Shown piece after piece: positions 23,462 to 40,383 of a stretch of 64,000 nucleotides of DNA. The stretch covers positions 1 to 64,000 of the forward strand of contig JANLSU010000047.1 of the NCBI GenBank assembly GCA_031362565.1, written 5' to 3'. The notes below the pieces were generated by a model that did not search any database, was not told the origin of the DNA, and was given only the letters and a program-made list of their open reading frames with translations. The stretch comes from a bacterium. GTDB taxonomy: Bacteria; Krumholzibacteriota; Krumholzibacteriia; G020349025. The stretch's first letter is position 1. Every line of letters starts with the position of its first letter. Made by a program: the position numbers and the translations under genes.

Positions 23462-23476
23462 GCGCCACCGACGGAT

Positions 23477-24187: not shown

Positions 24188-24254
24188 GTGACACCTTCGT
24201 GGGCTCGCGTGCAGCGAGCGTTCGTCCGCGTGCAGAATAGCACCGCACATCCGC

Positions 24255-24276
24255 GAGTGAAAGCTTGCTTTCACTC
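24255..24276. promoter_or_regulatory. Palindromic operator candidate in the divergent EPS promoter region
   Basis: GAGTGAAAGC-TT-GCTTTCACTC: perfect 10-bp inverted repeat with a 2-nt spacer. Confidence 0.55.
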
Positions 24277-24388
24277 ACAAGTCAAATGGCATGACGGATG
24301 GGGCGACGAAACGCGGCTTGAAGGCCTGTCCAAGATTACAAATTGTTCATTTCATACGTGTAATGTCGCGAAAAAACACGCCGCAAAC

Positions 24389-24417
24389 TTGACCGCGCCG
24401 CGCCTGTTCGCTATGAT
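24389..24417 (+). promoter_or_regulatory. Sigma70-type promoter of the comA-EPS operon
   Basis: TTGACC (24389-24394), 17-nt spacer, TATGAT (24412-24417). AT-rich sequence upstream. Confidence 0.65.
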
Positions 24418-24552
24418 CGCGAACACCAGCGACGCGACGACATGCCGCGGTCAACGGAAGTTCGTCGGCGCGGAAACCCTGCACACACGCGCACTCTCGA
24501 CTCGGAACCGGTTCACGAGTGCAGCCGCACCGAAACATCAGGATTGCTCGAC

Positions 24553-25380
24553 ATGGAACCTTTCGCACCCAGACCAAACACGACGAGCTACCTCCGTTCA
24601 ATCGGTGTCCGTGACTTGCCGCCGCGGACATGTCCGTTCGACCCCGGGTATGACGCTCTGACTCTGCGCGGCCATCTCGAGCAAAGCGCGCACTTGATGT
24701 CGACGCTCAAGATCTCGATGGCGTGCTGGCTGGTCGCGAAGGAACAGGTGACGCGCGAAAAGATCGCCATGGCGCGCCGGCATCGTGTCCCCACGGTCAC
24801 CGGCGGCGGGCCGTTCGAGATCGCCGCCGCTCAAGGGCATGTGCGCGAGTATCTCGATTTGTGTGCCGACATCGGCGTGACGCGAATCGAAGCCGGCGAA
24901 GGGTTCACGGACCTGACGCTGGCTCCCGGCGCGGTCATGAGCATGGCGCGCGAGCGCGGGCTCGAGGTGCAGTTCGAGCTGGGGAAGAAGCATGCCGGGG
25001 CGTTCGACAGCGGCATGGTCGGCGACCTCATCGACCAGGGCCGCAGCTGGCTGGACGCTGGAGCGGTGCAACTGGTCATCGAGGCCCGCGAAAGTGCTGC
25101 GGGTGTCGGCCTGTTCGACATTTCTGGAGCCCTGAACCGGGCGTTCGCGGACCGCTTTGTGAGCGCCTTCGGTTTCGAGGTCGCGGTATTCGAAGCGCCG
25201 AACAAGCCGAGCCAGTTTGCGCTGCTCGAACATTTTGGATCCGAAGTGCACCTGAGCAACGTGCGCCTCGAGGAATTGTTACGGGTTGAAATCTACCGGC
25301 GGGGATTGCACTCGGATGCGTTCGAGAAGGCAAATCTGCGGCCGCGCGTTCCCGGCGAGGAAACTCCTGCACGCGCTTGA
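24553..25380 (+). CDS. comA: Phosphosulfolactate synthase (ComA family)
   Basis: DPG, LKIS, GGGPFE, FELGKK, LVIEARES, FEAP, NV...EIYRRGLHSD match the ComA TIM-barrel motif series. Confidence 0.88.
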   Translation: MEPFAPRPNTTSYLRSIGVRDLPPRTCPFDPGYDALTLRGHLEQSAHLMSTLKISMACWLVAKEQVTREKIAMARRHRVPTVTGGGPFEIAAAQGHVREYLDLCADIGVTRIEAGEGFTDLTLAPGAVMSMARERGLEVQFELGKKHAGAFDSGMVGDLIDQGRSWLDAGAVQLVIEARESAAGVGLFDISGALNRAFADRFVSAFGFEVAVFEAPNKPSQFALLEHFGSEVHLSNVRLEELLRVEIYRRGLHSDAFEKANLRPRVPGEETPARA

Positions 25381-25422
25381 GCCAGCGGAACGCACCGAGT
25401 CCCGGAGGAGGGTCGTACCAGC

Positions 25423-26160
25423 GTGAATCACATCGTACGCGTCGATTGTTTCAACGATGACCTGCCGTTATACGGCGACGACTACGCAGTCATCGCTGTG
25501 GATGTGATGCGTTCCACGACGACAGCGGTCACCGCGGTCGCGACGGGACGCCGCTGTTTTCCAGTGGCCTCAATCGAAGGCGCACTACGCCTCGCGAGCG
25601 TGTTGCCCAATGCCCTGCTCGTGGGCGAGCAGGGCGGTGGCATGCCCTACGGCTTCGCCTTCACGAACAGTCCGTACGAAATGCACCGCCGTGACTATGA
25701 CCTGAGCCGTCCGGCGGTCTTGCTGTCGAGTTCGGGGACCAAGCTCCTTTGCGCCGCTGCCGAGCGTCATGCGACCGTCTATGCAGCTTGCCTACGCAAT
25801 GCCCGCGCGACGGCCGCATGGGTGGCGGCGCATCATACCCATGTGGCAATTGTCGGGGCCGGCACCCGCGGTGAGTTCCGCGAGGAAGACCAGCTGGCCT
25901 GCGCCTGGATTGCCGCGACCCTGGTGACGCACGGATTCGAAGCCGGCGCCCTGGCCGCCGCCATCATCGAGCGCTGGCAGTCGGCGCCGGTGCACCTGAT
26001 TGCCGATGGCAAGAGTGCCGCATACCTGCGTCGATCCGGACAAACCTTCGACCTGCATTTTGTCCTCTCGCATATCAACGACCTCGACCTGGTGTGCGCG
26101 TTGCAAAACGACGAGATCGTCGTCGCGGACCGCGTGCCGATCCAAGAGGTGGCGGCATGA
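25423..26160 (+). CDS. comB: 2-phosphosulfolactate phosphatase (ComB family)
   Basis: VDVMRSTTT, GEQGG, NSP, SSSGT, ACLRNA, EEDQLACA. Confidence 0.92.
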   Translation: MNHIVRVDCFNDDLPLYGDDYAVIAVDVMRSTTTAVTAVATGRRCFPVASIEGALRLASVLPNALLVGEQGGGMPYGFAFTNSPYEMHRRDYDLSRPAVLLSSSGTKLLCAAAERHATVYAACLRNARATAAWVAAHHTHVAIVGAGTRGEFREEDQLACAWIAATLVTHGFEAGALAAAIIERWQSAPVHLIADGKSAAYLRRSGQTFDLHFVLSHINDLDLVCALQNDEIVVADRVPIQEVAA

Positions 26161-27437
26161 AGGAGCCATGGCGTGCGATACAGCGCTCGACTCCGGTGCT
26201 GCTTCTCAAAGGGGTCGCGGACCCTCTGCAGCAGTCGGGGGTGGCGATCGCGCGCAGCCTGGGGCGGCTCGGCGTCGCGGTGCACGGTGTGTACGATGCC
26301 GTCGATGTTCCCGGCGCCCGGTCGCGCTACGTCCAAAGCCGCAGCGCCTGGGATGTGGCACGGTCGGCGCGGGAAGCAACGCTGCGGCACTTGCGAGACC
26401 GGGCTGACGATATTGGCGGCGTACCGCTGCTCATCCCGACCGACGATGTCGCGACCCTGTTCGTCGACGAACAGGCCGACACCTTGCGCCTGACGTTCGG
26501 GTTTCCCGGCCAACCGCGTGGCCTGCCGCGCCAACTCGCCGACAAGCGGTCGATGCAAATGCTTTGCGCCGCGCACGGCGTCGACACCGCACGCTGTGCC
26601 TATCCAACGTCGCGCCGCGATCTGTTGCACATTCTCCAGGACTGGCAGTTCCCGGCCGTGCTGAAGAGCATGGACCCGGCACTGCTGCGCCAGCGTCCTG
26701 GGGCGAAGAGCGTCACGATCGCGGCCACCGCACCGGAACTCCTTGCCGCCTATGACGCGATGGAAGTGCCGGGACATCCGAACCTTATGCTGCAGGAATA
26801 CATTCCCGGGGACGCCGAGTCGGTGTGGATGTTCAACGGCTATTTCGATGCGGATTCGGATTGTCTGTTCGGAGTCACCGGCCGAAAAATCCGTCAGAGC
26901 CCGCCGCATACCGGCGCGACCTCGCTTGGAGTCTGCCTCCATAACGGCGTCGTGTTCGAGAAAACGCGGCGGTTCATGAAGGCGATCGGCTATCAGGGCA
27001 GCCTCGATCTCGGGTTCCGGTATGACCTGCGGGACGGCCGCTACAAGTTGCTCGACGTCAATCCGCGCATCGGCGCCACCTTCCGGCTCTTCGTCGACGC
27101 CAACGGCATGGACGTGGCGCGCGCTCAGTACCTGGATCACACCGGACAGCCGGTTCCCGCTTCGGCGCCGGTTCCGGGGCGCCGCTGGCTGGTCGAAATG
27201 CGCGACTTGAGCTCGGCGCACCAACTGCGGCGCGCGGATGAACTCACGGCGTGGTCCTGGCTCCGCTCGTATGCCGGCGTGCGCGAGACGGCGTGGTTTG
27301 CCGCCGACGACATGGGCCCCTTCCGCGCCGTGCTCGGCTACTACATGTCGCGCGCCGTTCGCCGGTCGCAAGCCCCGGCGCAAGCCCGCGAGCGCGGCCC
27401 GCGGATGCAGATCGCTCCCAAGGTGGTGCGCCCATGA
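26157..27437 (+). CDS. ATP-grasp carboxylate-amine ligase (D-aspartate-ligase-like)
   Basis: ARSLGRLG, LIPTDD, DK, FPAVLK, QEYIPG, DLRDGRYKLLDVNPR. ATGA overlap with comB. Confidence 0.88.
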   Translation: MKEPWRAIQRSTPVLLLKGVADPLQQSGVAIARSLGRLGVAVHGVYDAVDVPGARSRYVQSRSAWDVARSAREATLRHLRDRADDIGGVPLLIPTDDVATLFVDEQADTLRLTFGFPGQPRGLPRQLADKRSMQMLCAAHGVDTARCAYPTSRRDLLHILQDWQFPAVLKSMDPALLRQRPGAKSVTIAATAPELLAAYDAMEVPGHPNLMLQEYIPGDAESVWMFNGYFDADSDCLFGVTGRKIRQSPPHTGATSLGVCLHNGVVFEKTRRFMKAIGYQGSLDLGFRYDLRDGRYKLLDVNPRIGATFRLFVDANGMDVARAQYLDHTGQPVPASAPVPGRRWLVEMRDLSSAHQLRRADELTAWSWLRSYAGVRETAWFAADDMGPFRAVLGYYMSRAVRRSQAPAQARERGPRMQIAPKVVRP

Positions 27438-27973
27438 AAACGGCACTGCATGGCGAATACCGTTGCCGTCGCACCGTCGCTCTGGTGCTTCGCACCTGGG
27501 TGGGCGCGGTCGCGCTGTGGGCATTGCAGGGCGCGCCGCGTGCGTGCGCTCAGGAAGACAATCGCTATTTGCTCGGACAGGACCGGCAACTCGAAATGAT
27601 CGTCCATATCATTGGTGAAGTGAAGGCGCCGGGTGAGTACCGGGTGCACGACAACACGACCGCTCTCGAACTGCTGTCCAAAGCCGGCGGCCCGACGGAG
27701 TTCGCGAACCTGGGCGCCATCCTCATTCGCCATACCCAACCGGGCGGCCCGGGCGCCGCCCTGGCTGCCGGGCCGTCAGTTCAGAAGATCAACTTGGGGA
27801 AATACCTGCACGACAGCACCGCCACGCCACCGCCGGTCTTGCAACCGGGCGACTTTGTCTCCGTCCCCGGCAATCGCTGGCGGACCTGGCGCAGCGGTTT
27901 CTCGGTCGTGCGTGACCTCGCCGTGGTGGCTTCGGCCTATTTTCTTTATCTCCGAGCCCACAACAACAACTGA
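27434..27973 (+). CDS. SLBB-domain polysaccharide export protein (short Wza/OPX-like)
   Basis: HIIGEVKAPGEY...LLSKAGG...LQPGD.V.VP. C-terminal amphipathic/hydrophobic helix. ATGA overlap with the ligase gene. Confidence 0.85.
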   Translation: MKTALHGEYRCRRTVALVLRTWVGAVALWALQGAPRACAQEDNRYLLGQDRQLEMIVHIIGEVKAPGEYRVHDNTTALELLSKAGGPTEFANLGAILIRHTQPGGPGAALAAGPSVQKINLGKYLHDSTATPPPVLQPGDFVSVPGNRWRTWRSGFSVVRDLAVVASAYFLYLRAHNNN

Positions 27974-27985
27974 TGAGGAGGGTGG

Positions 27986-30253
27986 ATGCGTTCCCGCGAA
28001 GCAGATCTCATCATGGCCCGGCTGCGGCGGGCCTTCCGGCGCCGCAAACGCTGGATCGTGGCGTGCACCGCCATCACGTTGTTGCCGATCGTCGCCTACA
28101 ACGAGCTGAGTACGCCCGTCTACGAAGCGACGACGTCGATCGTGTTCGACGATGCATCGAATGCCCCGACCGGCAGCAATGAAGCACTGCGGGCCCGCGA
28201 TATCGCCATCGCTAACCGGGTGCAGGAGTTATCGAGCTACTCGTTTGCGGCCGAGGTCGCAGCGACGATCGCTCCCGAGCACTTGCAGCGCATCCCGCCG
28301 CCGCGCGATCCGAAGCCCGACTTCGATTCGAAGCGCTACGTCATCGATACGATTCGCGAGAGCATCACCGCCGAGCCGGTGCGTAATTCCAACATCATCA
28401 CGTTGGGTGTCGTTCTTCCGGACGCCGAGCTGGCGACCGAAGTCGCCAACGCCGCTGGACACATCTACGAATTGCGTTCACAGCGGATCAAGCAGGAGGG
28501 CGTCGGCGGTTTGCGTCAATTCATCGAGCAACAGCTCGAGCGCACCCGGACGCAGCTCGAGCAAGCCGAGAATGACCTGAAAACGTACAAGGAAAAGAAT
28601 CAAATCACGTCGTTCGACAGCGAAACGCAGGAAGTGCTGCGGCGCGTCACGGATGCCGAGGTGCTCTACAACGGCGCCATCTCCAAGCGGCGCTCCCTGG
28701 AAGATAAATTGACGGCAGCCCAGAAACAGATCGAGTCGCAGCGCCAGGGTCTCGTGGCCGCAGTCACCGAGGCGACCACGCCGCGCGCCCAACGCCTCAA
28801 GGAGAAGCTCGTCGGCCTGCAACTGCAGTACACCGATCTCCAAGTCCAGAACTACGCGCTCAACCACCCCAAGATGGTGCAGCTCGAGAAGGAGCTCGGA
28901 GACACCAAGGCGAGCCTCACGGAGGAGGCTCGCAAGATCGCCGTCGGCCTGACCGTGGCCGACCCAATCGCCCAGATGGAACAGTTGATCAGCGATTCCG
29001 TGTCGATGGGAATCGAGGTGCAGGCACTGCGGGCCCAGGAAGGTGCCTTGCAGAAGATCATCCATCAGTATGACGCCGACATGGGCAAGCTGCCCGAACG
29101 CGAGTTCAACCTGGCGCGCTTGACGCGCGACCGCGATGTTGGGCAAAAGGTGTATTCCATGCTGCGCGAGCGTCTCGAGGACAGCAAGATCAACGAGGCT
29201 CAGAACCTCCCGAGCCTGCGCGTCCTGGATGCGGCGATGCTGCCCCAGGATCCGCTGCGGCCACGCAAGGCGATCAATCTCGCGATTGGCATCGTCCTCG
29301 GCCTGATCTTTGGAATCGGCGCGGCGTTCGCGCGCGAAAATCTCGGTACGGGAGTCGATCATACCGGCGAGATCGAATCGCTGACCGGATGGCCGTTCTT
29401 GGCATCGATCCCGCGGGTGGAGCACTTGGCGCGTGGCACCGTCGGGCACGCCAAAGGGATGGGCGCTGCCGATGCCCGGCGCATGCGGCGTGCCCTCCTG
29501 TCGCTCACCGATCCTAATTGCGGTGGGGCGGAAGCCTATCGCATGTTGCGAACCAATCTGCAGTTCCGCGGTTTCGGCAAGGACTTCAACAGCCTTGCCG
29601 TAACCAGCGTTAGTTCCACCGACGGCAAGTCGATGACCGCCTCGAACCTGGCGATCGCCTCGGCGGCGGTCGGCCTGCGCACTCTGCTCGTGGATGCCGA
29701 GGTGCGCCGGCCGGGCATGCACACGGTGTTCGGCGTCGATCTCGTGCCGGGTGTCAGTGACCTGATGAACGCGCGCCTACGAGATGCAGCAGCCGAACGT
29801 CCCTGGCGCGAAGCCTCTGCCGCCGCGAATGGCGGCCCGGTGGCCACCAAGACCACTACGGCGGCTACGACCGCGACGAACGACTTCGTGCGCCGCACGG
29901 CACTGCCCAACCTGTCGATTCTCACCGCCGGAACCCCGATCGACAACGTGCATGAAGCCATCTCGCGTTGGGCAGCGGACCTCGCCCGGCTGCTGGCGAC
30001 CTTGAAGCAGGACTACGACATCGTGATTCTCGACTCACCGCCGCTTGGAATCGTGCATGACGCCGCGGTGCTGGCCCAGCTCGCCGATCGCGTCCTGTTC
30101 GTGGTCAATGGCCTGCGCGTCGATGCAGAGCAACTCCAGAACGCCAAGCGGCTCCTCGATGGGGCCGGGGCCCGCGTCGTCGGGTCGGTGCTGAATCACA
30201 TGGACCCCTACGGCGTGTACGAGAGGAGCCCGTACTTCCAAACGACGGCTTGA
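27986..30253 (+). CDS. wzc: Polysaccharide co-polymerase / BY-kinase (Wzc/GumC type)
   Basis: TM1 then PVYEAT, long coiled coil, P..P..P TM2, AEAYRMLRTN, Walker A DGKS, LLVDA, Walker B ILDSPP, Tyr-containing tail. Confidence 0.92.
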   Translation: MRSREADLIMARLRRAFRRRKRWIVACTAITLLPIVAYNELSTPVYEATTSIVFDDASNAPTGSNEALRARDIAIANRVQELSSYSFAAEVAATIAPEHLQRIPPPRDPKPDFDSKRYVIDTIRESITAEPVRNSNIITLGVVLPDAELATEVANAAGHIYELRSQRIKQEGVGGLRQFIEQQLERTRTQLEQAENDLKTYKEKNQITSFDSETQEVLRRVTDAEVLYNGAISKRRSLEDKLTAAQKQIESQRQGLVAAVTEATTPRAQRLKEKLVGLQLQYTDLQVQNYALNHPKMVQLEKELGDTKASLTEEARKIAVGLTVADPIAQMEQLISDSVSMGIEVQALRAQEGALQKIIHQYDADMGKLPEREFNLARLTRDRDVGQKVYSMLRERLEDSKINEAQNLPSLRVLDAAMLPQDPLRPRKAINLAIGIVLGLIFGIGAAFARENLGTGVDHTGEIESLTGWPFLASIPRVEHLARGTVGHAKGMGAADARRMRRALLSLTDPNCGGAEAYRMLRTNLQFRGFGKDFNSLAVTSVSSTDGKSMTASNLAIASAAVGLRTLLVDAEVRRPGMHTVFGVDLVPGVSDLMNARLRDAAAERPWREASAAANGGPVATKTTTAATTATNDFVRRTALPNLSILTAGTPIDNVHEAISRWAADLARLLATLKQDYDIVILDSPPLGIVHDAAVLAQLADRVLFVVNGLRVDAEQLQNAKRLLDGAGARVVGSVLNHMDPYGVYERSPYFQTTA

Positions 30254-30310
30254 ACTGGTGCGCCTCAGGATGAAACACCCAAGGATGCCACGAAGGTAGT
30301 GCCAAGTCCC

Positions 30311-30964
30311 ATGAACACGTTCCGCGACATTCCACCCCTCGTCCTCCTCACTTCGGTGATTGCGCTTCTTGGCAGCGCGGTGGTGATCTTCGCGACGCGC
30401 CGAATTGCCCGTGATCTCGTTGCCGCCTTCTGGACGCCGGATTCCGGACTCCCGACGTACCGCAAATGGCTCGACGTTTTGCATCGCGAGCTGAACCGCG
30501 CGCGCCGCTATCACCACCCGCTCGCAGTGGTCGTGACCCGCCTGACCGACAGCGGCTCTCTCGGTGACGTGAGCCGTGAGCGCGCCTCGGCATCGCGGCG
30601 CCGGCAGCTGGCGACGATGCGGGCCGGGTTCTTGATGCGTGAATTGCTGCGCGACACCGACGTGGTCACGTACGACCCGGCGGACAACAGGTTTGTCTTG
30701 CTGCTCACGGAAACCGATCCGGCCCAGGCGCGCGCCGCCATGGCCCGTCTCGATGCCATTGTCCTCGAGCGCGCCGGGGCTCGCCTCCGAAGTGGGATTG
30801 CAATGTTCCCGGCGGATGGCCTCATCACCGAGGACTTGGTGATGCTGGCGTCGGCCCATTGCGCGGGAGAAAAGGCCGGCACGCCGATCAGTGCGCTCGC
30901 GAAATACCCGGCGGCAGCCGCGGCGATCGCCACCGTGAAGCCCAACGCGGCACGGACTGCCTGA
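30311..30964 (+). CDS. Membrane-anchored degenerate GGDEF-domain protein
   Basis: N-terminal TM. DSGLP, RELNRARRY..PL, RDTD, FVLLL.ETD, SGIAMFP.DG. The GGDEF motif is replaced by DPADNRF. Confidence 0.75.
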   Translation: MNTFRDIPPLVLLTSVIALLGSAVVIFATRRIARDLVAAFWTPDSGLPTYRKWLDVLHRELNRARRYHHPLAVVVTRLTDSGSLGDVSRERASASRRRQLATMRAGFLMRELLRDTDVVTYDPADNRFVLLLTETDPAQARAAMARLDAIVLERAGARLRSGIAMFPADGLITEDLVMLASAHCAGEKAGTPISALAKYPAAAAAIATVKPNAARTA

Positions 30965-30974
30965 GGAGAGCGAC

Positions 30975-32168
30975 GTGGACATCAACCCGCCGGCGGTCGC
31001 ACTCGTCGTCTTCGTGGGGTCGGTGGCCGTGCTCGCCTATGTCTATGTTGGCTTTCCACTTCTGGTCCTGCTGTGGGGTGCAGTCCGGCCGCGCCGCGTT
31101 CACATCGCTGCCGTCACCCCCCGCGTCAGTTTGATCATCGCGGCGCACAACGAAGCGGCAAGTGCCACCGCCAAGGTGCAAAACTGCCTCGATGTCGACT
31201 ATCCGCCCGCGGCAATCGAAGTGGTGTTCGCAAGCGATGGTTCCACCGACCGCACGGAAGAGATCGTGCGCCGCTTCGCGGCGCGCGGCGTCCGGCTCCT
31301 ATCTCTGCCGCGCCAGGGCAAGCTGGCGGCGGTGCACGCCGCCGTCGAGGCTTCGACGGGCGAGATTCTCGTGTTCTCCGATGCCAACACGTACTTTCAT
31401 CCCGACGCGGTGCGCATGCTGGCGCGCAACTTCGCCGATCCGGCAGTCGGCGGCGTGTGTGGGAATCTGCAAGTCCGCTCCCGCGACCGCGGCCGCGACC
31501 GCGCCGATTCGAGCGGCGCCGGCGAGTCCTGGTATTGGGAACTCGACAAGGCATTGAAACGCATGCAAAGCCGCAGCGGCAGTATCGTGGCCGCGGACGG
31601 GGCGATCTACGCCATCCGGCGCCATCTGTACACGCGGCCGGAACACACGGCAGTGACCGATGATTTTGCGATCTCGACCGGCGTCGTGGCGCGCGGCTAC
31701 CGCTTGGTCTTCGAGCCTGAGGCGCTGGCGTGGGAACCGAGCGCCGGCCGCGCCGGCCTGGAGTTCTCGCGCAAAGTGCGCATCGTCAATCGCGGTCTGC
31801 GCGGCGTGCTGCTGCGCCGCCAACTCCTGAACCCGCGCCGTTATGGGTTCTATGCGGTCATCCTGTTCTCGCACAAAGTACTGCGGCGTGTGGCGCCGCT
31901 CTTTCTCATGAGTCTCTTGGCGAGCACTCTGGCGCTCGCCGCCCACGGGACAGGATTCGCGATCGCGCTCTATGCACAGTTGGCGTTCTACGCCACGGCG
32001 CTGGCGGGTTGGATGCTGCGAGGCAGGGCGTTTGGCCGCCAAAAGCTGCTGCTCGCGCCCTTTTACTACTGTCTCGCCAATGCCGCGGCGCTCGCCGGTT
32101 TGTGTTCGCTCGCCACCGGACAGCGCATCGAGCGTTGGGAGCCGCAGCGTACGGGGGCCGCGTCATGA
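30975..32168 (+). CDS. Glycosyltransferase family 2
   Basis: IIAAHNE, SDGSTD, GK, FSDAN (DxD region), GAIYAIRR, TDDF, SHKVLR. Confidence 0.93.
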   Translation: MDINPPAVALVVFVGSVAVLAYVYVGFPLLVLLWGAVRPRRVHIAAVTPRVSLIIAAHNEAASATAKVQNCLDVDYPPAAIEVVFASDGSTDRTEEIVRRFAARGVRLLSLPRQGKLAAVHAAVEASTGEILVFSDANTYFHPDAVRMLARNFADPAVGGVCGNLQVRSRDRGRDRADSSGAGESWYWELDKALKRMQSRSGSIVAADGAIYAIRRHLYTRPEHTAVTDDFAISTGVVARGYRLVFEPEALAWEPSAGRAGLEFSRKVRIVNRGLRGVLLRRQLLNPRRYGFYAVILFSHKVLRRVAPLFLMSLLASTLALAAHGTGFAIALYAQLAFYATALAGWMLRGRAFGRQKLLLAPFYYCLANAAALAGLCSLATGQRIERWEPQRTGAAS

Positions 32169-35100
32169 GCCCGCCGTTTGCGGCTGTCGAGACCGGCGAC
32201 CCTGGGCGCCGCCAGATTCGCGGTTCGAGCCTGCTGCTTCTCGGCCGTGGGATTTCACTGCCGCTGAGCTTGTGCGCGCAAGTGCTCCTGGTCCGTTACC
32301 TGGCCAAGGCGGACTATGGAGCACTCGCGTACGGGCTCGCGGTGGTGACGTTCTTCGACGGCCTCGCCGGTCTCGGCCTCGAAACGGCGCTGTCGAGATT
32401 CATCCCGATCTATCACGAGCGCCGCGATTGGGGCCGGTTCTTCGGGGTGATCGCGCTCACGGTTACGGTGATCCTCGCCATGGGCGCGGTGATCATTCTT
32501 GCCATCTGGGCGTCACCGGACTTGCCGGCGAAGTTGATACGCGAGGTCGGGAAGTCGTCGAGCGTGCTGCTCGTCATCGCGTTCTTGATTCCACTCGAAG
32601 CCCTCGACCAGGCGCTAGTGGCGCTCTTCGCCAGTCTGGCGAACCCGCGCTTCATTCTGCTGCGCCGCAGTCTCATCGCACCGGTGTTGAAGTTGGCCGT
32701 GATCCTGATCGCCATCGCCGGCGCCAAGGACGTGCGCTTCGTGGCGTTGGGCTACGTCATCAGCTCGGCGATCGGCATCGTGGTTCTGTCGCTCTTCTTC
32801 GCGCGTTATCTGCACCGCGCCGGACTGTTGCACCACTGGCGCTCCACCCGGCTCGAGATCCCGGTACGCGAGGTCCTCGGGTTCAGCATTCCACTCATGG
32901 CGACCGACATGGTCTCGACCCTGATTCCACTCACCAGCACGATGGTGCTCGGCTACTTCCACGGCAACGCTTCGGTGGCGAGTTATCGCGTCATTCTGCC
33001 CTTGACCGGCATGATTCACGTGATCATGCGGAGCTTCAACCTGCTCTACACGCCGCACGCGTCGCGGCTCTTCGCTCGCGATGACCCGGATGGTGTCGGC
33101 GCGTTGTACTGGCACTCCGCGAGCTGGCTCGCAGTGGCGACATTTCCGTTGTTCGCCGCCATCTTTCTCTGTGCGGAGCCGCTGACCGTGCGCCTGTACG
33201 GTGAACGGTATGCGAGTTCCGCCGGCGTCCTGCAGATCCTCGCCATGGCCTACTACTTCCACGTCGCCCTGGGCATGAACGGGTTGACGCTGCGTGTCTT
33301 GGGCAAGGTGCGCGCGGTTGTGGCGACCACGGCGGCGGCACAACTCGTCGGCACCGCGGTCGCTTTCCTGCTGATTCCTGGGCGAGCGGCGATGGGTGCG
33401 GCGATCGCCACCGCGGTCGCGATGTGCGCCGATACGCTGCTCAAGCAAGGGTTACTCATGAAGGCGAATGCCGCCGTCGGCCGGGGGGCGGGCAGGCAAG
33501 GCTTCTACGGCGCGATCGGTGCGGCCGTCGGCATCGTCCTGTTGACCCGCTGGGTGTTGCATCCGGGTCTGGTCGCGAGCGCGGGCATCGTAGTCGGTGC
33601 GTCGCTCTTCTTGCTGACCGCATTGTGGCGGCGCTTGCGCGTCTACGAATGCTTTCCGGAGCTGCTGCGCGTGCGGCGCGCGGCTTTGAAGCTCTTCTCC
33701 CGCGGCTCGGGCGGCGGCGCCGGCGATCGACCTGGCTCCGCCGGCACGCCGGCGGTTCTGCGCCGTATTCGGGTCTGGATTGCGGCTCTCGGCGCCGCGT
33801 TCATCGTGCTGACAATCGCCGGTTCGGCGTGGTCGGCACCGCTCGGGTTTCCGGGCGCGGATCGCATCCCACTGGTCATTGGTGCTCTTGTCATGGTGAT
33901 CGCGGCCGCAGCGGTCGTCTGCGGGTTATTCCTGTGGCCGGACACTGCCGTGATCGCCGGCGTGTTGCTTCTCTATGCGAACATTCCCGTGATTCTCGGC
34001 GAGCGCATCGGCAGCCCGATGGCCGTCGGCATCGCCATCGTTACCCTGATCGCGCTGGCGGCATTCGGCCGCGCTGTCGTGCATCGCGACGGACCGGCGA
34101 TCGATCTGCCGTTCTTGGGGCTCATCGTGTTTCTGGGCGCGGGTTTGTTGTCGACGCTCTTCGCCCGCGATCCGGCGGTCGCCTTCGGGTGGCTCGGCAC
34201 GTTCACGGTCGAAGTCGTCGCTCTGTACCTGTTGCTCTTGAACGCGGTGCGGAGTGCCCGAAGCCTGCGGCGCGTCTTCCGGGCACTGGTGTTCGGGGCG
34301 GCGGTTCTCGCCCTGCTCGGCGCCTCTCAGGAAGTGAGCGGCAACTACTCGCAGCAGTTCATGGGTCTCGCACACCGCAACTTGTCGCTCTTGAACGACG
34401 ACCCCAACGCCGCGACCGGGATGGAGCGTCCGGCGGGCGGCGTGCGGCTCGCGCAACGCGGCTCGGGCCCCATCGGCGAGCCCAACCGTTGGGCGCAAAC
34501 GCTGCTTTTTCTGCTGCCGCTCGGCCTGCTCGGGATCCGCCACGAACCTTCCGCCGGCCGGAAAGTGACGCTGGCAGCGGCCTCCACGTTGATCGCCGGC
34601 GGCGTGTTTCTGACCTACTCGCGCGGCGCGCTCGTTACGATCGCTGGACTCGCGGCCGGGTTGGCCGTCCTGCGGGTCGTGCGCGTACGCGTCCTGTTGG
34701 CGGGCGGCATCGGCATCGCGGTGGCGGCGGCATGCATGGCACCGAACACCGTCGCGCGGCTCGGCACCTTCGGCGGGATCGAGAGTCTGTTCGGGCATCA
34801 GAAGAGTGCGAAGCCAGCCGATAACGCCATCCGCGGGCGCATGACCGAAATGCTGGCGGCCGGTCTCGTGGCGCTCGATCATCCGCTCGTCGGCGTCGGG
34901 CCCGGCCATTTCACGCCATATTATTCACTCGAGTACATGGCGACTCCCGGCATCGCGTTTCGCGACATCGACAAGACGCGCCGCGCCCACTCGTTGTACC
35001 TCGAGATGGCGGCGGAAACCGGCATCATCGGTCTCGCGGCATTTCTCGCCGTGCCGGTCCTGCTGGCAGTACGCCTTTGGAAGTGGCACCGCCGGTTGCG

Positions 35101-35383
35101 TGTCAGCCGCCCCGACCTGGCCGACCTCGCAGCCGGATGCCTGTTGGCATTGATGGCGTATCTCGGCACCGGCGTGTTCTTGCACCTGTCGTATCAGCGG
35201 TACTACGGCCTGCTGCTGGGACTGTGCGGCTGTTGTGTGGCGGTTTTGGACGTGGAGACGAAGGCACTCGGCGGGGGCGTGGAAGAGGGCCGCATCGTGC
35301 GTGGCGTCTTTATGCCGGCACCACGACCACTCGATCTCGAGCCACTCGAGGCGCCGGGCGCCAACCGCCTGGCCCATCTCTAG
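32165..35383 (+). CDS. Fused Wzx-type flippase and O-antigen ligase/Wzy-type polymerase (1072 aa)
   Basis: N-half: LLVRYL...DYG...GLETALSRFIP (MOP flippase). Gly-rich linker at about 33690-33770. C-half: GPIGEPN, TYSRG, DHPLVGVGPG, AHSLYLEMAAETGIIG (Wzy_C). Single uninterrupted frame with ATGA overlap at the start. Confidence 0.85.
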   Translation: MSPPFAAVETGDPGRRQIRGSSLLLLGRGISLPLSLCAQVLLVRYLAKADYGALAYGLAVVTFFDGLAGLGLETALSRFIPIYHERRDWGRFFGVIALTVTVILAMGAVIILAIWASPDLPAKLIREVGKSSSVLLVIAFLIPLEALDQALVALFASLANPRFILLRRSLIAPVLKLAVILIAIAGAKDVRFVALGYVISSAIGIVVLSLFFARYLHRAGLLHHWRSTRLEIPVREVLGFSIPLMATDMVSTLIPLTSTMVLGYFHGNASVASYRVILPLTGMIHVIMRSFNLLYTPHASRLFARDDPDGVGALYWHSASWLAVATFPLFAAIFLCAEPLTVRLYGERYASSAGVLQILAMAYYFHVALGMNGLTLRVLGKVRAVVATTAAAQLVGTAVAFLLIPGRAAMGAAIATAVAMCADTLLKQGLLMKANAAVGRGAGRQGFYGAIGAAVGIVLLTRWVLHPGLVASAGIVVGASLFLLTALWRRLRVYECFPELLRVRRAALKLFSRGSGGGAGDRPGSAGTPAVLRRIRVWIAALGAAFIVLTIAGSAWSAPLGFPGADRIPLVIGALVMVIAAAAVVCGLFLWPDTAVIAGVLLLYANIPVILGERIGSPMAVGIAIVTLIALAAFGRAVVHRDGPAIDLPFLGLIVFLGAGLLSTLFARDPAVAFGWLGTFTVEVVALYLLLLNAVRSARSLRRVFRALVFGAAVLALLGASQEVSGNYSQQFMGLAHRNLSLLNDDPNAATGMERPAGGVRLAQRGSGPIGEPNRWAQTLLFLLPLGLLGIRHEPSAGRKVTLAAASTLIAGGVFLTYSRGALVTIAGLAAGLAVLRVVRVRVLLAGGIGIAVAAACMAPNTVARLGTFGGIESLFGHQKSAKPADNAIRGRMTEMLAAGLVALDHPLVGVGPGHFTPYYSLEYMATPGIAFRDIDKTRRAHSLYLEMAAETGIIGLAAFLAVPVLLAVRLWKWHRRLRVSRPDLADLAAGCLLALMAYLGTGVFLHLSYQRYYGLLLGLCGCCVAVLDVETKALGGGVEEGRIVRGVFMPAPRPLDLEPLEAPGANRLAHL

Positions 35384-35391
35384 GGAAGTTC

Positions 35392-36333
35392 ATGCTGCGC
35401 ATTCTCACCTATCACCGCGTCGACGTCCGGAAGGACGACGAGACCTTGTCGCCGCGCATGGTGAGTGCCGAGCCGCAAGTCTTCGAGGCGCAAATGCGCT
35501 GGGTCGCGCAGCACTACGAAACGGTGTCTCTCGCCGACGTGTTGCAGGCCGTGCACGGTGCCCGCCGGCTCCCGAATCGTGCGGTGCTCGTGACGTTCGA
35601 CGATGCGTACCGCGATTTTCGCACCCACGCGTGGCCGATTCTCGCGGCCCGCAGAATCCCGGTGGTGCTCTTCGTACCCACGGCATTCCCTGGCCGACGC
35701 AACTTCCATTTCTGGTGGGACCGGCTCTTCCGTGCCTTCCAGGGAACCACCGCCCCGATGCTCGCCCACACGCCGCTTGGCGGCCTGCCGACGGATACGC
35801 CCAGCCATCGCGCCCAATCGCAACGGCGGCTCGAAACGTATCTAAAGTCGATTTCACACGACGCCGCAATGCGCTGGGTCGAGCACGTGTGTTCCGAAGC
35901 GGGGGTCGTCGATCCGGGCGACAACGGCGTGCTCACCTGGGACGAACTGCGGGATCTCCACACCGCCGGGGTCACGATGGCGTCGCATTCACACGAGCAT
36001 CCAGTGCTGACGCGCGTGCCGCCGGACCGGGTCCGCGAGGAATTGCTCCGGTCGCGCGGCGCTCTGCTCCGGGAACTGGGGGAGTGCCCGCCCGTGTTGA
36101 GCTATCCCGCCGGTGCGCATGACGCACATGTGGCGGCACAGTTGCAAGAGACCGGCTACGAACTGGGGCTGACGCAGCGCGACGGCCACAACGACCTGCA
36201 ATCGCACGACCTCTTGGCTCTATGTCGAACCAATCTCACGCGCAAGACGACGCCACTGATTCTCGAACTCCGCCTGCAGCCGTGGACCCAGCGGATCGAG
36301 CGCTTGCGCCATCACGCGCACGCGAGTTCATGA
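35392..36333 (+). CDS. Polysaccharide deacetylase (CE4/NodB family)
   Basis: ILTYHRV, VTFDDAY, SHSHEHP, SYPAG. Confidence 0.92.
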   Translation: MLRILTYHRVDVRKDDETLSPRMVSAEPQVFEAQMRWVAQHYETVSLADVLQAVHGARRLPNRAVLVTFDDAYRDFRTHAWPILAARRIPVVLFVPTAFPGRRNFHFWWDRLFRAFQGTTAPMLAHTPLGGLPTDTPSHRAQSQRRLETYLKSISHDAAMRWVEHVCSEAGVVDPGDNGVLTWDELRDLHTAGVTMASHSHEHPVLTRVPPDRVREELLRSRGALLRELGECPPVLSYPAGAHDAHVAAQLQETGYELGLTQRDGHNDLQSHDLLALCRTNLTRKTTPLILELRLQPWTQRIERLRHHAHASS

Positions 36334-37673
36334 GCCATGCGACTGGAGCCGTCATGATGAATCCACAACGTGCAACCGCCGCCGGAAACGGTGCGTCCGC
36401 TGCGCCACGGCCGCTGCGTGTCGCTTACATCGTGTCGCGCTTTCCAAAAGTGACCGAAACGTTCGTGCTGTTCGAGATGCAAGCCATGGAACGCCTCGGG
36501 GTGCAGGTCGAGTTCTTCCCGTTGCTGCGCGAGCGCGAGACGGTCATGCATCCGGAAGCCGCGCGCTGGATGCAACGGGCCCACTATATGCCGTTTGTTT
36601 CGCTGCCCATTCTGTGGGCGCAATTGTGGTTCCTGGCGCGGTCACCGCGCCGCTACATGGGAATGTGGCTCGAGGTTCTGCGCCGCACCTTCGGCAGTGC
36701 GAATTTCTTCGTCGGAGCTCTCGGGACCGTTCCGAAGTCGGTCCGTTTCGCGTATGAGATGCGGCGCCTCGGCATCGAGCATGTGCACGCGCACTTCGCC
36801 AGCCACCCCACCGTCGCGGCATTCGTGATCCGCCGCTTGACGGGCATTCCTTACAGCTTCACGGCGCACGGCGCGGATCTGCATGTCGATCGACACATGT
36901 TGCGTGAAAAAATGCGCGAGGCGGCATTTTCGGTGCCGATCTCGGAATACAACCGGCGGCTCATGCTGGCGGCGTGCGATGAAGATCTCGCCGACCGGAC
37001 GCATATCGTGCATTGCGGTGTCGACGTCGGCGTCTTCTTGCCGCGCGCCGCGGACCGTGCTCCGGCACCGCGGTTCCAGATGCTCTGCGTGGCGCGGTTC
37101 GAGACCGCCAAGGGGCACCGCTATCTCATCGAGGCCTGCCGGATTCTGGCGGCCGGCGGCTGGGATTTCGACTGCCACCTCATTGGTGACGGCCCCCGGC
37201 GGCAGGACATCGCGGCGCAGGTGGCGACAGCTGATCTAGGCGCCCGGCTGCATCTGCACGGCGCGCGGACCCGCGCCGAAGTGGTGCAGTGGATGGCCAA
37301 GGCGGATGTCGTCGTATTGCCGAGCACACCGATGCCTTCCGGCCGGCGCGAGGGAATTCCCGTCGTCCTCATGGAGGCCATGGCGAGCGAACTGCCCGTC
37401 GTCTCGACTGCGACATCGGGGATTCCGGAACTCGTCGAGGACGGAGTGTCCGGCCTGCTCGTTGCGCCTGAAGATCCGATTGCGTTGGCTGCGGCGCTTG
37501 AACGCCTCATGGCGAGCCCGGATCTGCGGCAAGCGTTCGGCCGGGCGGGGCGCGCCCGGGTGGCGCGGGATTTCGATCTGTACCGTAACGCCGCCGAACT
37601 TGCGGCGCTGTTTACCTCACGCGGAACAAAGCCCACGCCGGCGGATGCGAATGCGTTGGGCGTGCCAGTCTAG
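36330..37673 (+). CDS. Glycosyltransferase family 4 (WcaL-like)
   Basis: FPKVTETF, HVHAHFA, FTAHG.D, ARF...KG, EGIPVVLMEAMA. ATGA overlap. Confidence 0.93.
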   Translation: MSHATGAVMMNPQRATAAGNGASAAPRPLRVAYIVSRFPKVTETFVLFEMQAMERLGVQVEFFPLLRERETVMHPEAARWMQRAHYMPFVSLPILWAQLWFLARSPRRYMGMWLEVLRRTFGSANFFVGALGTVPKSVRFAYEMRRLGIEHVHAHFASHPTVAAFVIRRLTGIPYSFTAHGADLHVDRHMLREKMREAAFSVPISEYNRRLMLAACDEDLADRTHIVHCGVDVGVFLPRAADRAPAPRFQMLCVARFETAKGHRYLIEACRILAAGGWDFDCHLIGDGPRRQDIAAQVATADLGARLHLHGARTRAEVVQWMAKADVVVLPSTPMPSGRREGIPVVLMEAMASELPVVSTATSGIPELVEDGVSGLLVAPEDPIALAAALERLMASPDLRQAFGRAGRARVARDFDLYRNAAELAALFTSRGTKPTPADANALGVPV

Positions 37674-37685
37674 AAATCGGGCGAG

Positions 37686-38750
37686 GTGACTCCGTTGAAC
37701 CGAAGAAGTCTGCGGCGGATGGCATGCCTCGGATGCACCGTCGTTGGAATTGGCATCGGACCCGCGCCGGCTTCGGCAATCGCGCCGCTGGCGGCACATT
37801 CCGGCATCTGGATCAGCCGTGAGGAAATCGCCGCGTTGCCCATGTCCGGCCCTGCCTGGGAGTACCTGCAGCGTGACGCCCACCAAAAGATCCCGCCGCC
37901 GGACCTGTCGAACCAGAACGATCGCACCAACGTCATCGTCGTCGCCAAAGCTTTCGTCTTCGCCCGTACCGGCGACGAGTCGTATCGCAGCGAAGTGCGG
38001 CAGGCGATCCGTGCGGCGATGGGCACCGAGCGCGGCGGCCGGACGTTGTCGCTGGCGCGTCAGCTCGGCTCGTACGTCATTGCGGCTGAATTGATCGGCC
38101 TGCCGCCCGACGAAGACGACATTTTCCGCACCTGGTTGCGCTCGACTCTCGATTTCGATCTCGAAGGGCGCACGCTCCGCACGACGCACGAACTGCGGCC
38201 GAACAATTGGGGCACCCATGCCGGAGCGAGCCGGCTCGCCGCCGCGCTGTACGTGGGCTGGACGCCGGAAGTCGAACGCTGTGCACAGGTGTTCCGCGGC
38301 TGGCTCGGCGAGCGTGCGTCGTACGCCGGATTCGAGTTCGGCGACCTGTCGTGGCAATCGGATCCGGCGCATCCGGTCGGCATCAACCCGCTCGGTGCGA
38401 CCCGTGACGGGTATTTGATCGATGGCGTGCTGCCGGACGACCAACGGCGGGCGAGTCCGTTCACGTGGCCGCCACCGCACGAGAACTATGTCTACGAAGC
38501 GCTGCAAGGCGCTGTCGCGCAGGCCGTAATGTTGGAGCGCGCCGGTTACCCGGTCTGGGCTTGGAGTGATCGCGCCCTGCTGCGAGCTTTCCTGTGGCTG
38601 CAGAGTAGGGCGAACTATCCGGCCACCGGCGACGATACGTGGCTCCTACCAATTGTCGATCGTGCCTACGGTACGCAGTTCTGGGACGGCGGTCCGACGC
38701 ATCCCGGAAAAAGCATCGGCTGGACGGATTGGACGCATGCACGACGTTGA
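37686..38750 (+). CDS. Periplasmic alginate-lyase-family (alpha/alpha toroid) polysaccharide lyase
   Basis: Signal peptide. AAELI...FRTWL, PNNWGTHA, DQRR...NY.YE, matching AlgL-like lyase features. Confidence 0.7.
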   Translation: MTPLNRRSLRRMACLGCTVVGIGIGPAPASAIAPLAAHSGIWISREEIAALPMSGPAWEYLQRDAHQKIPPPDLSNQNDRTNVIVVAKAFVFARTGDESYRSEVRQAIRAAMGTERGGRTLSLARQLGSYVIAAELIGLPPDEDDIFRTWLRSTLDFDLEGRTLRTTHELRPNNWGTHAGASRLAAALYVGWTPEVERCAQVFRGWLGERASYAGFEFGDLSWQSDPAHPVGINPLGATRDGYLIDGVLPDDQRRASPFTWPPPHENYVYEALQGAVAQAVMLERAGYPVWAWSDRALLRAFLWLQSRANYPATGDDTWLLPIVDRAYGTQFWDGGPTHPGKSIGWTDWTHARR

Positions 38751-38788
38751 ACCGTCCGGCGCGTAGTTCGCAACAAAGGAGAAGAAAG

Positions 38789-39337
38789 ATGTCATTCATT
38801 CGAACGAGTGCAGCTTGGAAATTCACACTGGCGGCGGTGTTGTGTACCGGTCTGCTGCCCCAAATAGCCGCGGCACACACCTGGGACGTCGCGGCAAAGA
38901 TCGGTGTCGGCATCCCGGTCGGCAGCCTGAGCGACGGTTATGACCCGGGACTCGGGTTGTCGCTTGCCACGACACGCTGGTTTGGACCGCGGGTCGGACT
39001 CCGCTTCGGAGGCGCCGGCAACTTGTTGGGCGGCACGACCAACGGTATTCCCGATGTCACGTTCTGGCACTACGACGTCGGACCGGAGTTCGATCTCCTT
39101 CCCCCAGCCAACAAATTGATGCTGCATGGCAATGTCGGGCTGGGCGGTACGACGGAGCAGGCCAGTGGCGGCAACAGTGCCACCGACTTTACGCTGAACT
39201 TCGGTTTGAACCTCGAGTACCCGCTCAACGAATACTTCCATCTGATGGGCGGTCCGGCGCTGTACATGGTTTTCGCCGATAAGACCCAATACATCATGCC
39301 AATCACCGTGGGCTTCCGCTATCTCTTCGCGGACTAA
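38789..39337 (+). CDS. Small outer-membrane beta-barrel protein
   Basis: RBS AAGGAG. Signal peptide, alternating aromatic strands, ends ITVGFRYLFAD. Confidence 0.8.
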   Translation: MSFIRTSAAWKFTLAAVLCTGLLPQIAAAHTWDVAAKIGVGIPVGSLSDGYDPGLGLSLATTRWFGPRVGLRFGGAGNLLGGTTNGIPDVTFWHYDVGPEFDLLPPANKLMLHGNVGLGGTTEQASGGNSATDFTLNFGLNLEYPLNEYFHLMGGPALYMVFADKTQYIMPITVGFRYLFAD

Positions 39338-39343
39338 TCAGAA

Positions 39344-39385
39344 GGCGGCCGCAAAGCCCGGGCGATCCCGGGCGATGCGGCCGCC
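39344..39385. terminator. Long GC hairpin between convergent genes (end of EPS operon)
   Basis: ggcggccgca-aa-gcccggg-cgat-cccgggc-ga-tgcggccgcc: 17 bp paired, followed by aaaa (U-tract on the minus strand). Confidence 0.75.
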
Positions 39386-39398
39386 AAAACGAAACCAC

Positions 39399-40184: not shown

Positions 40185-40383
40185 GATTCTTTCCTTTGGC
40201 AAGTCCCTCAGGCTCGGCCGCCGAAGCGCCGCGCACGTGATCCGCGCCCATCATGCCAGACCGCCGCTGACGCGCCGATGAACGCAGAATGACAATCGAG
40301 TCATTGCGCCTGGAATCGGATCTTGACCAAGGACTGCTGCGGGTGTTCAATTGTATGAGCCCGATCCGCGTGTGGGGGACACC

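Follow-up and report, generated by a model that had tools for sequence, protein, structure and literature searches.

The DNA considered here, hereafter the window, is a stretch of 64,000 nucleotides comprising the first 64 kb of contig C101 (JANLSU010000047.1) of an uncultured sediment bacterium of the Krumholzibacteriota, whose genome (G000, 5.4 Mb in 133 contigs) is 100% complete by markers. At positions 24553-39337 three genes, comA, comB and that of an ATP-grasp ligase, head a set of genes for the synthesis and export of an exopolysaccharide (EPS). The best explanation of this arrangement, judged by comparison of sequences, is that a horizontally acquired three-gene cassette has come to lie at the head of a Wzx/Wzy-type EPS operon that is conserved in the bacterium's family. 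An earlier note on this DNA had proposed that the cassette makes 3-sulfolactate and attaches it, as an N-sulfolactyl amide, to de-N-acetylated amino sugars of the EPS. That a sulfolactate-derived group of some kind decorates the polymer has, in our estimate, about an even chance of being correct; the specific amide is a more tentative proposition, to be weighed below. What is new is the cassette as a module swap on a family EPS locus, and the prospect of a glycan tailoring that would be built from known enzyme families.

Organization of the locus

Twelve co-oriented open reading frames (ORFs) occupy the + strand of 24553-39337 (Table 1). Their codon usage (G+C content of third codon positions, GC3, 0.74-0.80) is that of genuine genes, and Pfam and NCBIfam profiles bear out the gene order and families that the earlier note had read there. 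The genes are closely packed. A gap of 42 nt separates comA from comB, gaps elsewhere are of 8-45 nt, and there are four ATGA overlaps: the two that had been claimed, comB/ligase and ligase/SLBB gene, are real, and two more are found at GT2/Wzx-Wzy (32165) and CE4/GT4 (36330). A Wzx/Wzy pathway is represented by its priming transferase (Bac_transf), flippase and polymerase (Polysacc_synt, Wzy_C), co-polymerase (Wzz, GNVR, AAA_31) and export protein (SLBB). The priming transferase (NCBIfam EPS_sugtrans 266.6 bits, WbaP 241.6 bits) is transcribed divergently from comA. In relatives its orthologs (56-63% identity) are encoded within the EPS operon itself, and it is part of the EPS system though outside 24553-39337. 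The divergent intergenic region also contains what had been called a good sigma-70 promoter. The motif is present, but sites of this kind occur no more often than chance predicts (two observed in 23000-41000, 2.5 +/- 1.8 in shuffled sequence), and it is by its position only that the motif suggests a promoter.

Table 1. Features in and next to the EPS operon of the window
Feature	Position	Strand	Evidence
Priming polyprenyl-phosphate hexose-1-phosphate transferase, small WbaP/WcaJ/EpsZ-type	23477..24274	-	PF02397 Bac_transf, 210.8 bits
Sigma-70-like motif TTGACC-17-TATGAT	24389..24417	+	10/12 matches; 278-bp divergent intergenic region
comA, phosphosulfolactate synthase family	24553..25380	+	PF02679, 148 bits (cut-off 25.2)
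comB, 2-phosphosulfolactate phosphatase family	25423..26160	+	PF04029, 123.2 bits (cut-off 26.4)
ATP-grasp ligase, ComAB-linked clade	26157..27437	+	ATP-grasp fold (AF2 model, Foldseek)
Short SLBB-domain OPX-like outer-membrane polysaccharide export protein, 179 aa	27434..27973	+	PF10531, 36.8 bits; PF22461, 27.8 bits
Wzc-type polysaccharide co-polymerase/tyrosine autokinase	27986..30253	+	GNVR, Wzz, AAA_31
Membrane-anchored degenerate GGDEF-like protein, 221 aa	30299..30964	+	PF00990, 15.2 bits (cut-off 23.8), E 0.019
Membrane GT2, PgaC/IcaA/NodC-like	30975..32168	+	PF00535, 85 bits
Wzx flippase-Wzy polymerase fusion, 1072 aa	32165..35383	+	Polysacc_synt and Wzy_C in one frame
CE4 polysaccharide de-N-acetylase, cytoplasmic by sequence	35392..36333	+	PF01522, 68.2 bits (Pfam)
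GT4, EpsE-like	36330..37673	+	PF00534 and PF13692, ~122 bits each
Alginate-lyase-family protein, polysaccharide lyase-like	37686..38750	+	PF05426, 30.2 bits (cut-off 22.2)
Possible outer-membrane beta-barrel, OMP_b-brl, start uncertain	38639..39337	+	PF13505, 20.6 bits (cut-off 28.7)
GC-rich inverted repeat GGCGGCCGC ... GCGGCCGCC, 9-bp stem, likely terminator	39344..39385		read from sequence

The SLBB export protein has orthologs at 40-48% identity in relatives, and the Wzc-type protein scores 160 bits with NCBIfam Wzc and 132 bits with eps_fam (cut-off 108). The protein encoded at 30299-30964 begins with a hydrophobic helix and had been described as a degenerate GGDEF protein. Its Pfam match is below threshold, ADNRF replaces the GGDEF motif (with RDTD just upstream), and 28 of its 30 Atlas neighbours are GGDEF clusters; it is likely GGDEF-like and at most a degenerate, non-catalytic domain, since score and motif place it outside the diguanylate cyclases. 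Its gene is kept directly after wzc in all of the family loci examined. The protein is a candidate PelD-like receptor of cyclic di-GMP. Fusions of a flippase with Wzy_C, of 900-1100 aa, recur as Atlas clusters in several phyla; at this place the relative G003 (described below) has a separate Wzy only.

The membrane GT2 (orthologs in relatives at 56-61% identity) weakly resembles NodC and PgaC, and the CE4 protein PgaB and IcaB, but none of these named equivalogs is reached: the GT2 scores 88.7 bits with PgaC_IcaA (cut-off 422) and 47.5 bits with NodC, and the CE4 protein 95 bits with PgaB (cut-off 322), over the N-terminal part only. A poly-N-acetylglucosamine (pga/ica) system is rejected on these scores. 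The start of the CE4 gene, as corrected here, is the ATG at 35392, 8 nt past the Wzx-Wzy stop, and the N-terminus, MLRILTYHRV, is without a signal peptide. The protein belongs to the CE4 family and keeps TFDD and HSHEH, which we take to be its metal-binding Asp/His/His motifs. For the GT4 the most probable start is 36330, in the overlap with the CE4 stop, although its frame is open from 36222; it scores 244 bits with NF041876 EpsE (cut-off 400). The beta-barrel that had been read at the end of the operon stands as an ORF, but its PF13505 score is below the cut-off, and a homolog was not seen in the loci of relatives. A very short SLBB-only export protein leads the export genes and a weak barrel candidate closes the operon; the pair resembles the composite OPX (outer-membrane polysaccharide export)/beta-barrel translocon of Myxococcus. 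The inverted repeat of Table 1 lies between the operon end and a convergent M48 peptidase gene.

The proteins of the cassette

ComA of methanogens and its partner ComB catalyze the first two steps of coenzyme M synthesis, and the Bacillus subtilis homologs YitD and YitC make the sulfolactate of spores. The window proteins are members of the corresponding Pfam families (PF02679 and PF04029). ComA, the only one in the genome, matches Methanocaldococcus jannaschii ComA (1QWG) over its full length (residues 31-259 to 21-250, E 7.8e-28) in a gap-poor alignment with conserved blocks; ComB matches PDB entries 2YYV (E 3e-13) and 1VR0, each designated a 'probable 2-phosphosulfolactate phosphatase'. The lack of comC and comDE, first claimed for the window, holds and extends to the whole, 100%-complete genome, in which neither comC (Ldh_2, PF02615) nor sulfopyruvate decarboxylase (TIGR03845) is found. 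The cassette therefore does not serve the synthesis of coenzyme M, and that candidate function is rejected.

The ligase has no PDB-chain match by sequence search and is above the cut-off of no curated Pfam or NCBIfam subfamily (the best, ATPgrasp_Ter, gives 21.9 bits against 29.1, and PRK12767 types are far below); its profile matches to carboxylases have E values of 1e-8. An AlphaFold2 (AF2) model based on an alignment of 45 sequences (pLDDT 91.3, pTM 0.90) has the three-domain ATP-grasp fold, and Foldseek matches it to PurK, biotin carboxylases, PurT and L-amino-acid ligases with probability 1.00 (TM 0.5-0.6, 11-19% identity). By these comparisons the ligase belongs to an unnamed ATP-grasp clade. 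Invariant in the alignment are K130, K170, E214, D290, N302 and R304; by analogy with other ATP-grasp enzymes, the two lysines presumably contact the ATP phosphates and the acidic, Asn and Arg residues serve magnesium binding and catalysis. None of the three cassette ORFs is disrupted, their catalytic positions are conserved and their GC3 (0.74-0.78) is that of the operon; the enzymes look active.

Linkage and distribution

A search over one genome per species finds 255 stretches that encode a ComA relative, and the best 80 of these (66-74% identity to the window ComA) were analyzed. They come from at least ten phyla: by title, Acidobacteriota, Ignavibacteriota/Bacteroidota, Pseudomonadota, Binatota, Chloroflexota, Gemmatimonadota and Nitrospirota, with a Rubrobacter bin and eleven archaeal bins labelled Bathyarchaeota, and they include a cultured carrier, Bradyrhizobium elkanii WSM2783 (L075). 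By tblastn with the window proteins, ComB adjoins ComA in 80 of 80 loci and the ligase is present in 74, usually as the next gene (73 at 41-70% identity, one at 25%). Of the six loci lacking it, three (L063, L077, L090) end at or just after comB and a fourth (L069) has ~0.8 kb left; at L028 and L039 no ligase was found despite at least 2.5 kb of downstream DNA. The reverse search, a scan of metagenomes for the ligase, yields 80 contigs with relatives at 45-54% identity to the window ligase, 65 of which hold ComA or ComB; the fraction rises to 28 of 28 among contigs that extend 2 kb or more beyond the ligase in each direction and is 14 of 14 among those that extend 5 kb or more, and the 15 contigs without ComA or ComB are short or edge-cut. 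The linkage for which the earlier note had suggested a survey of neighbourhoods is thus recurrent in both directions of search, and the sequence record supports comA-comB-ATP-grasp as a real functional unit, a conserved cassette.

The distribution of this unit is patchy. None of 60 relatives of G000 that were searched, six same-family genomes among them, has a real ComA (the single match has E 6.3e-4 and 19 bits), and distant ligase paralogs (25-32% identity) are found in seven of the 60. A close ligase (E <= 1e-40) is likewise found in 0 of 150 sampled other genomes of the phylum of cassette locus L053. A ComA tree, made by a quick method with SH-aLRT supports, mixes phyla (17 label changes against a minimum of nine) and puts an archaeal clade next to an Ignavibacteriota sequence; the window ComA is a long branch with no well-supported partner. 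Because patchy distribution and a phylum-interleaved tree go together, the cassette is taken to be sporadic and transferred.

Companion genes and glycan context

The ORFs of the 80 genome loci were clustered and representatives scanned with profiles. The most frequent companion is an S-adenosylmethionine (SAM)-dependent methyltransferase, directly 5' of comA in 48 loci. Polysaccharide genes are common: GT4 (27 loci), GT2 (14), priming transferase (19), epimerase/dehydratase (17), export protein (13), DegT aminotransferase (12) and Wzz/GNVR (9). CE4 deacetylases occur in 15 loci and PIG-L deacetylases in ten, all of the latter right after the ligase in archaeal bins; in Gemmatimonadota, too, a deacetylase of one or other type stands directly 3' of the ligase. 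Pfam annotation of eight cassette loci adds detail, and five contexts may be cited: PglF/PglE-like amino-sugar genes with a second DegT (L060); PIG-L, GT4 and GT2 (L043); LarA, CE4 and exosortase-type genes (L023); Wzx, GT4, CE4 and a FemAB-like protein (L054); and two CE4 genes with a GT2 (L080). In the 54 loci that are at least 15 kb long, counted by cluster membership and tblastn, at least one polysaccharide hallmark gene is found in 42, at least two in 29 and at least three in 21.

Further evidence comes from fusions. Relatives of the ligase are joined to methyltransferases (many cases), to a second ATP-grasp domain, to FemAB-like Acetyltransf_6 (five proteins), to UDP-glucose dehydrogenase (P0150), to a priming transferase (P0107), to Lar_N (P0132) and to Lar_N plus methyltransferase (P0134). 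A LarA-type (Lar_N) protein is also encoded in 13 of the 80 genome loci and 20 of the 80 metagenome contigs. LarA homologs racemize alpha-hydroxy acids. Since LarA is both linked and fused to the ligase, which is the best indirect evidence at hand, the ligase probably handles the hydroxy acid of ComA and ComB; its carboxylate substrate looks like an alpha-hydroxy acid. The window itself has no LarA, and the only one in the genome is 22-25% identical to the cassette LarA proteins.

These contexts bear on whether sulfolactate is attached to the polymer at all. It might instead remain free or enter a soluble conjugate (an osmolyte, a store like that of Bacillus spores or a piece of a cofactor) that is merely co-regulated with the EPS genes, the EPS itself carrying no sulfonate. 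ComA and ComB homologs do make free sulfolactate in B. subtilis, and 12 of the 54 long loci have no recognized polysaccharide gene. Glycan genes in the other 42, the fusion of a ligase to a priming transferase, the ATGA coupling of ligase to export gene in the window and the replacement by the cassette of a ligase that the family otherwise keeps in its EPS locus (see below) all speak against this alternative, which we regard as rather improbable.

Two variants of the cassette deserve mention in their own right. In Pseudomonadota and Binatota an enolase-superfamily (MR_MLE) gene follows the ligase in six of the 80 loci (L012, L029, L032, L035, L041, L075), most of them also with a FemAB-like Acetyltransf_6 gene; at L046 the FemAB-like gene alone is present. 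Such companions hint that the sulfolactate conjugate of these groups is more elaborate, perhaps with an amino acid in it. Elsewhere two ATP-grasp ligases are in tandem or fused (~900 aa; L050, L057, L072, L085, L088 and P0122-P0124), which suggests two successive ligations.

The EPS locus of same-family relatives

All six same-family genomes have orthologous EPS genes, Wzc included. In the complete chromosome of G003 the order is SLBB, Wzc, GGDEF-like, priming transferase, GT2, Wzy and CE4, with the lyase (64% identity) on the opposite strand, and the proteins are 35-64% identical to those of the window; the locus is without comA, comB and the cassette ligase. Directly beside it are genes for a pyruvate-kinase/PUA/ATP-sulfurylase fusion, a Sulfotransfer_3 protein, an HprK-like protein and an ATP-grasp ligase of a second type (27% identity to the window ligase). 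The G005 locus runs priming transferase, GT2, Wzx, APH-like kinase, second-type ATP-grasp, beta-helix protein, unknown protein, CE4 (47% identity to its window counterpart) and GT4 (57%). Orthologs of the second-type ligase (54-70% mutual identity) are in or near the EPS locus of five of the six family genomes; in G002, which is 71% complete, the best match is 36%. From G000 this ligase is missing, its best match (31%) being on another contig. (That contig, C3, carries at 38567-41007 on the - strand two tandem ATP-grasp paralogs that are ~31% identical to the EPS-locus ligase of the relatives.)

Since the relatives keep the locus without comAB and with another ligase that is absent here, the cassette looks like a replacement module on an EPS that already had its deacetylase: G000 appears to have exchanged its tailoring module and kept its EPS backbone. 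The possibility that the CE4 gene arrived with the cassette is rejected, CE4 being ancestral in the EPS locus of cassette-free relatives (45-47% identity).

A swap need not imply function. The cassette might be a recent insertion, a silent or decaying passenger at the 5' end of the operon, and one notes that it is absent from all 60 of the relatives searched and that its usual methyltransferase partner is missing. Nevertheless, the three ORFs are intact with their catalytic positions conserved, their codon bias is that of the operon, their translation is coupled to that of the genes 3' of them and the family's own ligase is gone from G000; of the alternatives considered here the passenger is the most remote.

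The G003 genus offers a parallel. Its neighbouring genes suggest an EPS that is sulfated by way of 3'-phosphoadenosine-5'-phosphosulfate (PAPS), and suggest in turn that selection has favoured an acidic sulfur group on this polymer on more than one occasion. G000 has no such set: it has no ATP-sulfurylase and no tblastn match to the sulfotransferase or the pyruvate-kinase-sulfurylase of G003 (the search took in no further sulfotransferase families). The fusion of pyruvate kinase, PUA_2 and ATP-sulfurylase, of 757 aa, is itself unusual (G003 positions L189:16712-19897 and L192:1-3672).

A proposed pathway and the case against it

We infer each chemical step, the acceptor and the type of bond from the families to which the proteins belong. 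ComA would add sulfite to phosphoenolpyruvate (PEP), and ComB would dephosphorylate the product to 3-sulfolactate. The ligase would form the acyl phosphate of sulfolactate with ATP in the cytoplasm and transfer the acyl group to an amine of the repeat unit while this is lipid-linked. The likeliest acceptor would be the free amine of a hexosamine, N-acetylglucosamine (GlcNAc) having been added by the PgaC/NodC-like GT2 and de-N-acetylated by the cytoplasmic CE4 enzyme. Flipping, polymerization and export of the decorated unit would fall to the Wzx-Wzy fusion, Wzc and the SLBB protein, and the result would be an EPS with a carbon-bonded sulfonate. Because the CE4 protein is, by its sequence, cytoplasmic, topology would permit an amine to be freed and then acylated at the expense of ATP. 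That such an EPS pathway is undescribed, as had been claimed, agrees with the full-text literature searched, in which no ligation of sulfolactate to a polysaccharide was found among the papers listed and the word 'sulfolactyl' does not occur (subscription journals lie outside this coverage); the passages on sulfolactate in two papers concern transport and catabolism only (PMC7324677, PMC11796062).

The N-sulfolactyl proposal draws its strength from the trio as a unit, from the polysaccharide loci in which it is found, from the absence of a coenzyme M route and from the feasible topology. The pairing of CE4 with an ATP-grasp ligase, kept through a change of ligase type, also fits a logic of 'free the amine, then cap it'. 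The ancestry of CE4 and the lack of genes for making sulfite detract from it, together with the further points that follow, and we consider an N-sulfolactyl amide on a CE4-freed amine possible but somewhat short of an even chance.

The first of these concerns the supply of sulfite. The genome has no gene of the PAPS_reduct, ATP-sulfurylase (PF01747), NIR_SIR or Oxidored_molyb (molybdenum sulfite oxidase) families, and it has no route from sulfate to sulfite by reduction. Candidate sources are a cysteine dioxygenase (60 bits) and two metallo-beta-lactamase (MBL)-fold proteins, one of them rhodanese-fused, that are weakly like sulfur dioxygenases; external sulfite or thiosulfate is another possibility. 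Among 20 relatives, PAPS_reduct exceeds its cut-off in four (three strongly, one marginally) and ATP-sulfurylase is present in six, which implies a lineage largely without assimilatory sulfate reduction and probably dependent on reduced sulfur. In a single case, the Bacteroidota cassette locus L054, a Lactamase_B-rhodanese fusion, with the architecture of persulfide dioxygenase fusions, is encoded ~5 kb downstream of the ligase (L054:18640-19707), a possible local source of sulfite.

The second point concerns the identity of the reaction. ComA gives 148.3 bits with the archaeal equivalog TIGR03849 (cut-off 280) and ComB 81 bits with the NCBIfam equivalogs (cut-offs 175-235), and because of these scores the two are ranked as family members, not as orthologs of the coenzyme M enzymes. 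Such scores, and the genome's want of sulfate activation and reduction, would suit a ComA-like enzyme that uses some other nucleophile or enol-phosphate than sulfite, the decoration then being another hydroxy acid. The full-length, gap-poor alignment of ComA with a solved sulfolactate synthase, the strict pairing of ComA with ComB, which is in keeping with the established two-step route, and the plausibility of other sulfite sources (the MBL-rhodanese gene of L054 included) make this, to our minds, distinctly improbable.

The third point concerns the bond and its acceptor. CE4, being ancestral and found also without the cassette, provides no evidence that deacetylation and the cassette are coupled. 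Polysaccharide genes do accompany the cassette, as the earlier note had anticipated, but in the same 54 long loci a CE4 or PIG-L deacetylase is recognized in 21, DegT in eight and either in only 28; these counts are conservative, and they cover cassette loci only. ATP-grasp enzymes, moreover, also make esters in which an alpha-hydroxy acid is the nucleophile (VanA, the D-Ala-D-lactate ligase, and the microviridin ligases), and the lyase-like gene of the operon hints at uronic acids in the polymer; one ligase relative (P0150) is fused to UDP-glucose dehydrogenase. Sulfolactate might then decorate the EPS in a different manner: through an ester of its 2-hydroxyl with the carboxylate of a uronic acid or amino-acid linker, or through an amine of other origin. 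The two kinds of fusion, with UDP-glucose dehydrogenase and with FemAB-like domains, favour this reading, as do the 26 of 54 long loci without a recognized deacetylase or aminotransferase. Against it, the operon has no gene for uronic-acid synthesis, and several lineages have a deacetylase gene directly 3' of that of the ligase; LarA and the methyltransferase, as partners, fit either reading. We hold this other mode of attachment to be unlikely, if a good deal less so than the passenger. A last difficulty for the N-sulfolactyl amide is that the methyltransferase found at 48 of 80 loci is missing from the window, with only generic methyltransferase matches in the genome.

Comparison with known systems

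The two enzyme families of the methanogen ComA/ComB and B. subtilis YitD/YitC routes are adjacent here too, and the same conversion of PEP and sulfite to 3-sulfolactate would be expected; the differences from methanogens are the absence of ComC and ComDE, the sub-equivalog scores, the dedicated ATP-grasp ligase and the setting in a glycan locus. Deacetylation followed by reacylation is an established theme, in NodC/NodB/NodA, MshB/MshC, BshB/BshC, LpxC/LpxD and the heparan sulfate N-deacetylase/N-sulfotransferase. Here, as in Nod-type systems, a GlcNAc-type transferase, a cytoplasmic de-N-acetylase and a potential amine-capping enzyme are encoded together. The window genes belong to none of these families, and the cap would be placed by an ATP-grasp enzyme from a free sulfonated hydroxy acid and not by an enzyme using acyl carrier protein (ACP) or coenzyme A (CoA) thioesters or PAPS.

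Tailoring of a capsular sugar by an ATP-grasp amidoligase has a precedent in the glucuronamide of Campylobacter jejuni HS:2. The fold, and presumably the acyl-phosphate chemistry, is shared with those amidoligases and with RizA, BL00235 and YwfE, but identity to solved structures is 11-19% and it would be sulfolactate that is activated, not the sugar's own carboxylate. PAPS-dependent sulfated EPS, of the type suggested for G003, would have a similarly strongly acidic sulfur group on the same kind of polymer, as an O- or N-sulfate ester in place of a C-S sulfonate on a three-carbon acyl group, and would need the sulfate activation that the cassette does without. To our knowledge sulfoquinovose, made with sulfite by UDP-sulfoquinovose synthase, is the only well-known carbon-bonded sulfonate on a glycoconjugate; in it the sulfonate is within the sugar, whereas here it would be on a separate acyl substituent derived from PEP. 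Among Wzx/Wzy pathways the Myxococcus Eps models supply the best names and the full gene set is present, with the differences that Wzx and Wzy are fused, the OPX protein has only 179 aa and all Myxococcus equivalog cut-offs are missed (as with EpsE, above).

A broader view of the trio would see in it a mobile, cross-domain cassette for glycan sulfonation, which would furnish amino sugars with N-sulfolactyl groups and need no activated sulfate, and one of several interchangeable anionic modules of the family, the others being its own ATP-grasp ligase with some acid and, in one genus, the PAPS sulfotransferase set. We offer this as speculation that is rather more likely wrong than right. If it holds, two 'methanogen' enzymes and a dedicated ligase would put a hydrolysis-resistant sulfonate, and with it a permanent negative charge, on microbial surface polymers by an undescribed, PAPS-independent route, and glycan chemistry would gain a new acyl group. 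Sulfolactyl glycans would be a hidden and widespread organosulfonate sink in soils and sediments and a new environmental source of sulfolactate, of relevance to the organosulfonate cycle, and the scatter of ComA and ComB among non-methanogenic soil bacteria and archaea would be explained. The swap between G000 and its relatives provides a natural control pair, and the cultured Bradyrhizobium elkanii carrier makes the idea testable.

Other features of the window

Downstream of the operon, on the - strand at 42393-53090, is the gene of a 3565-aa secreted S8 subtilase with many HYDIN/ASH-type Ig repeats and a C-terminal FlgD_ig domain. The same C-terminal domain is found on a 1248-aa galactose-oxidase-like/CBM96 protein (14424-18170) and on a GHL15 protein (18558-20651), in the manner of a sorting tag common to all three.

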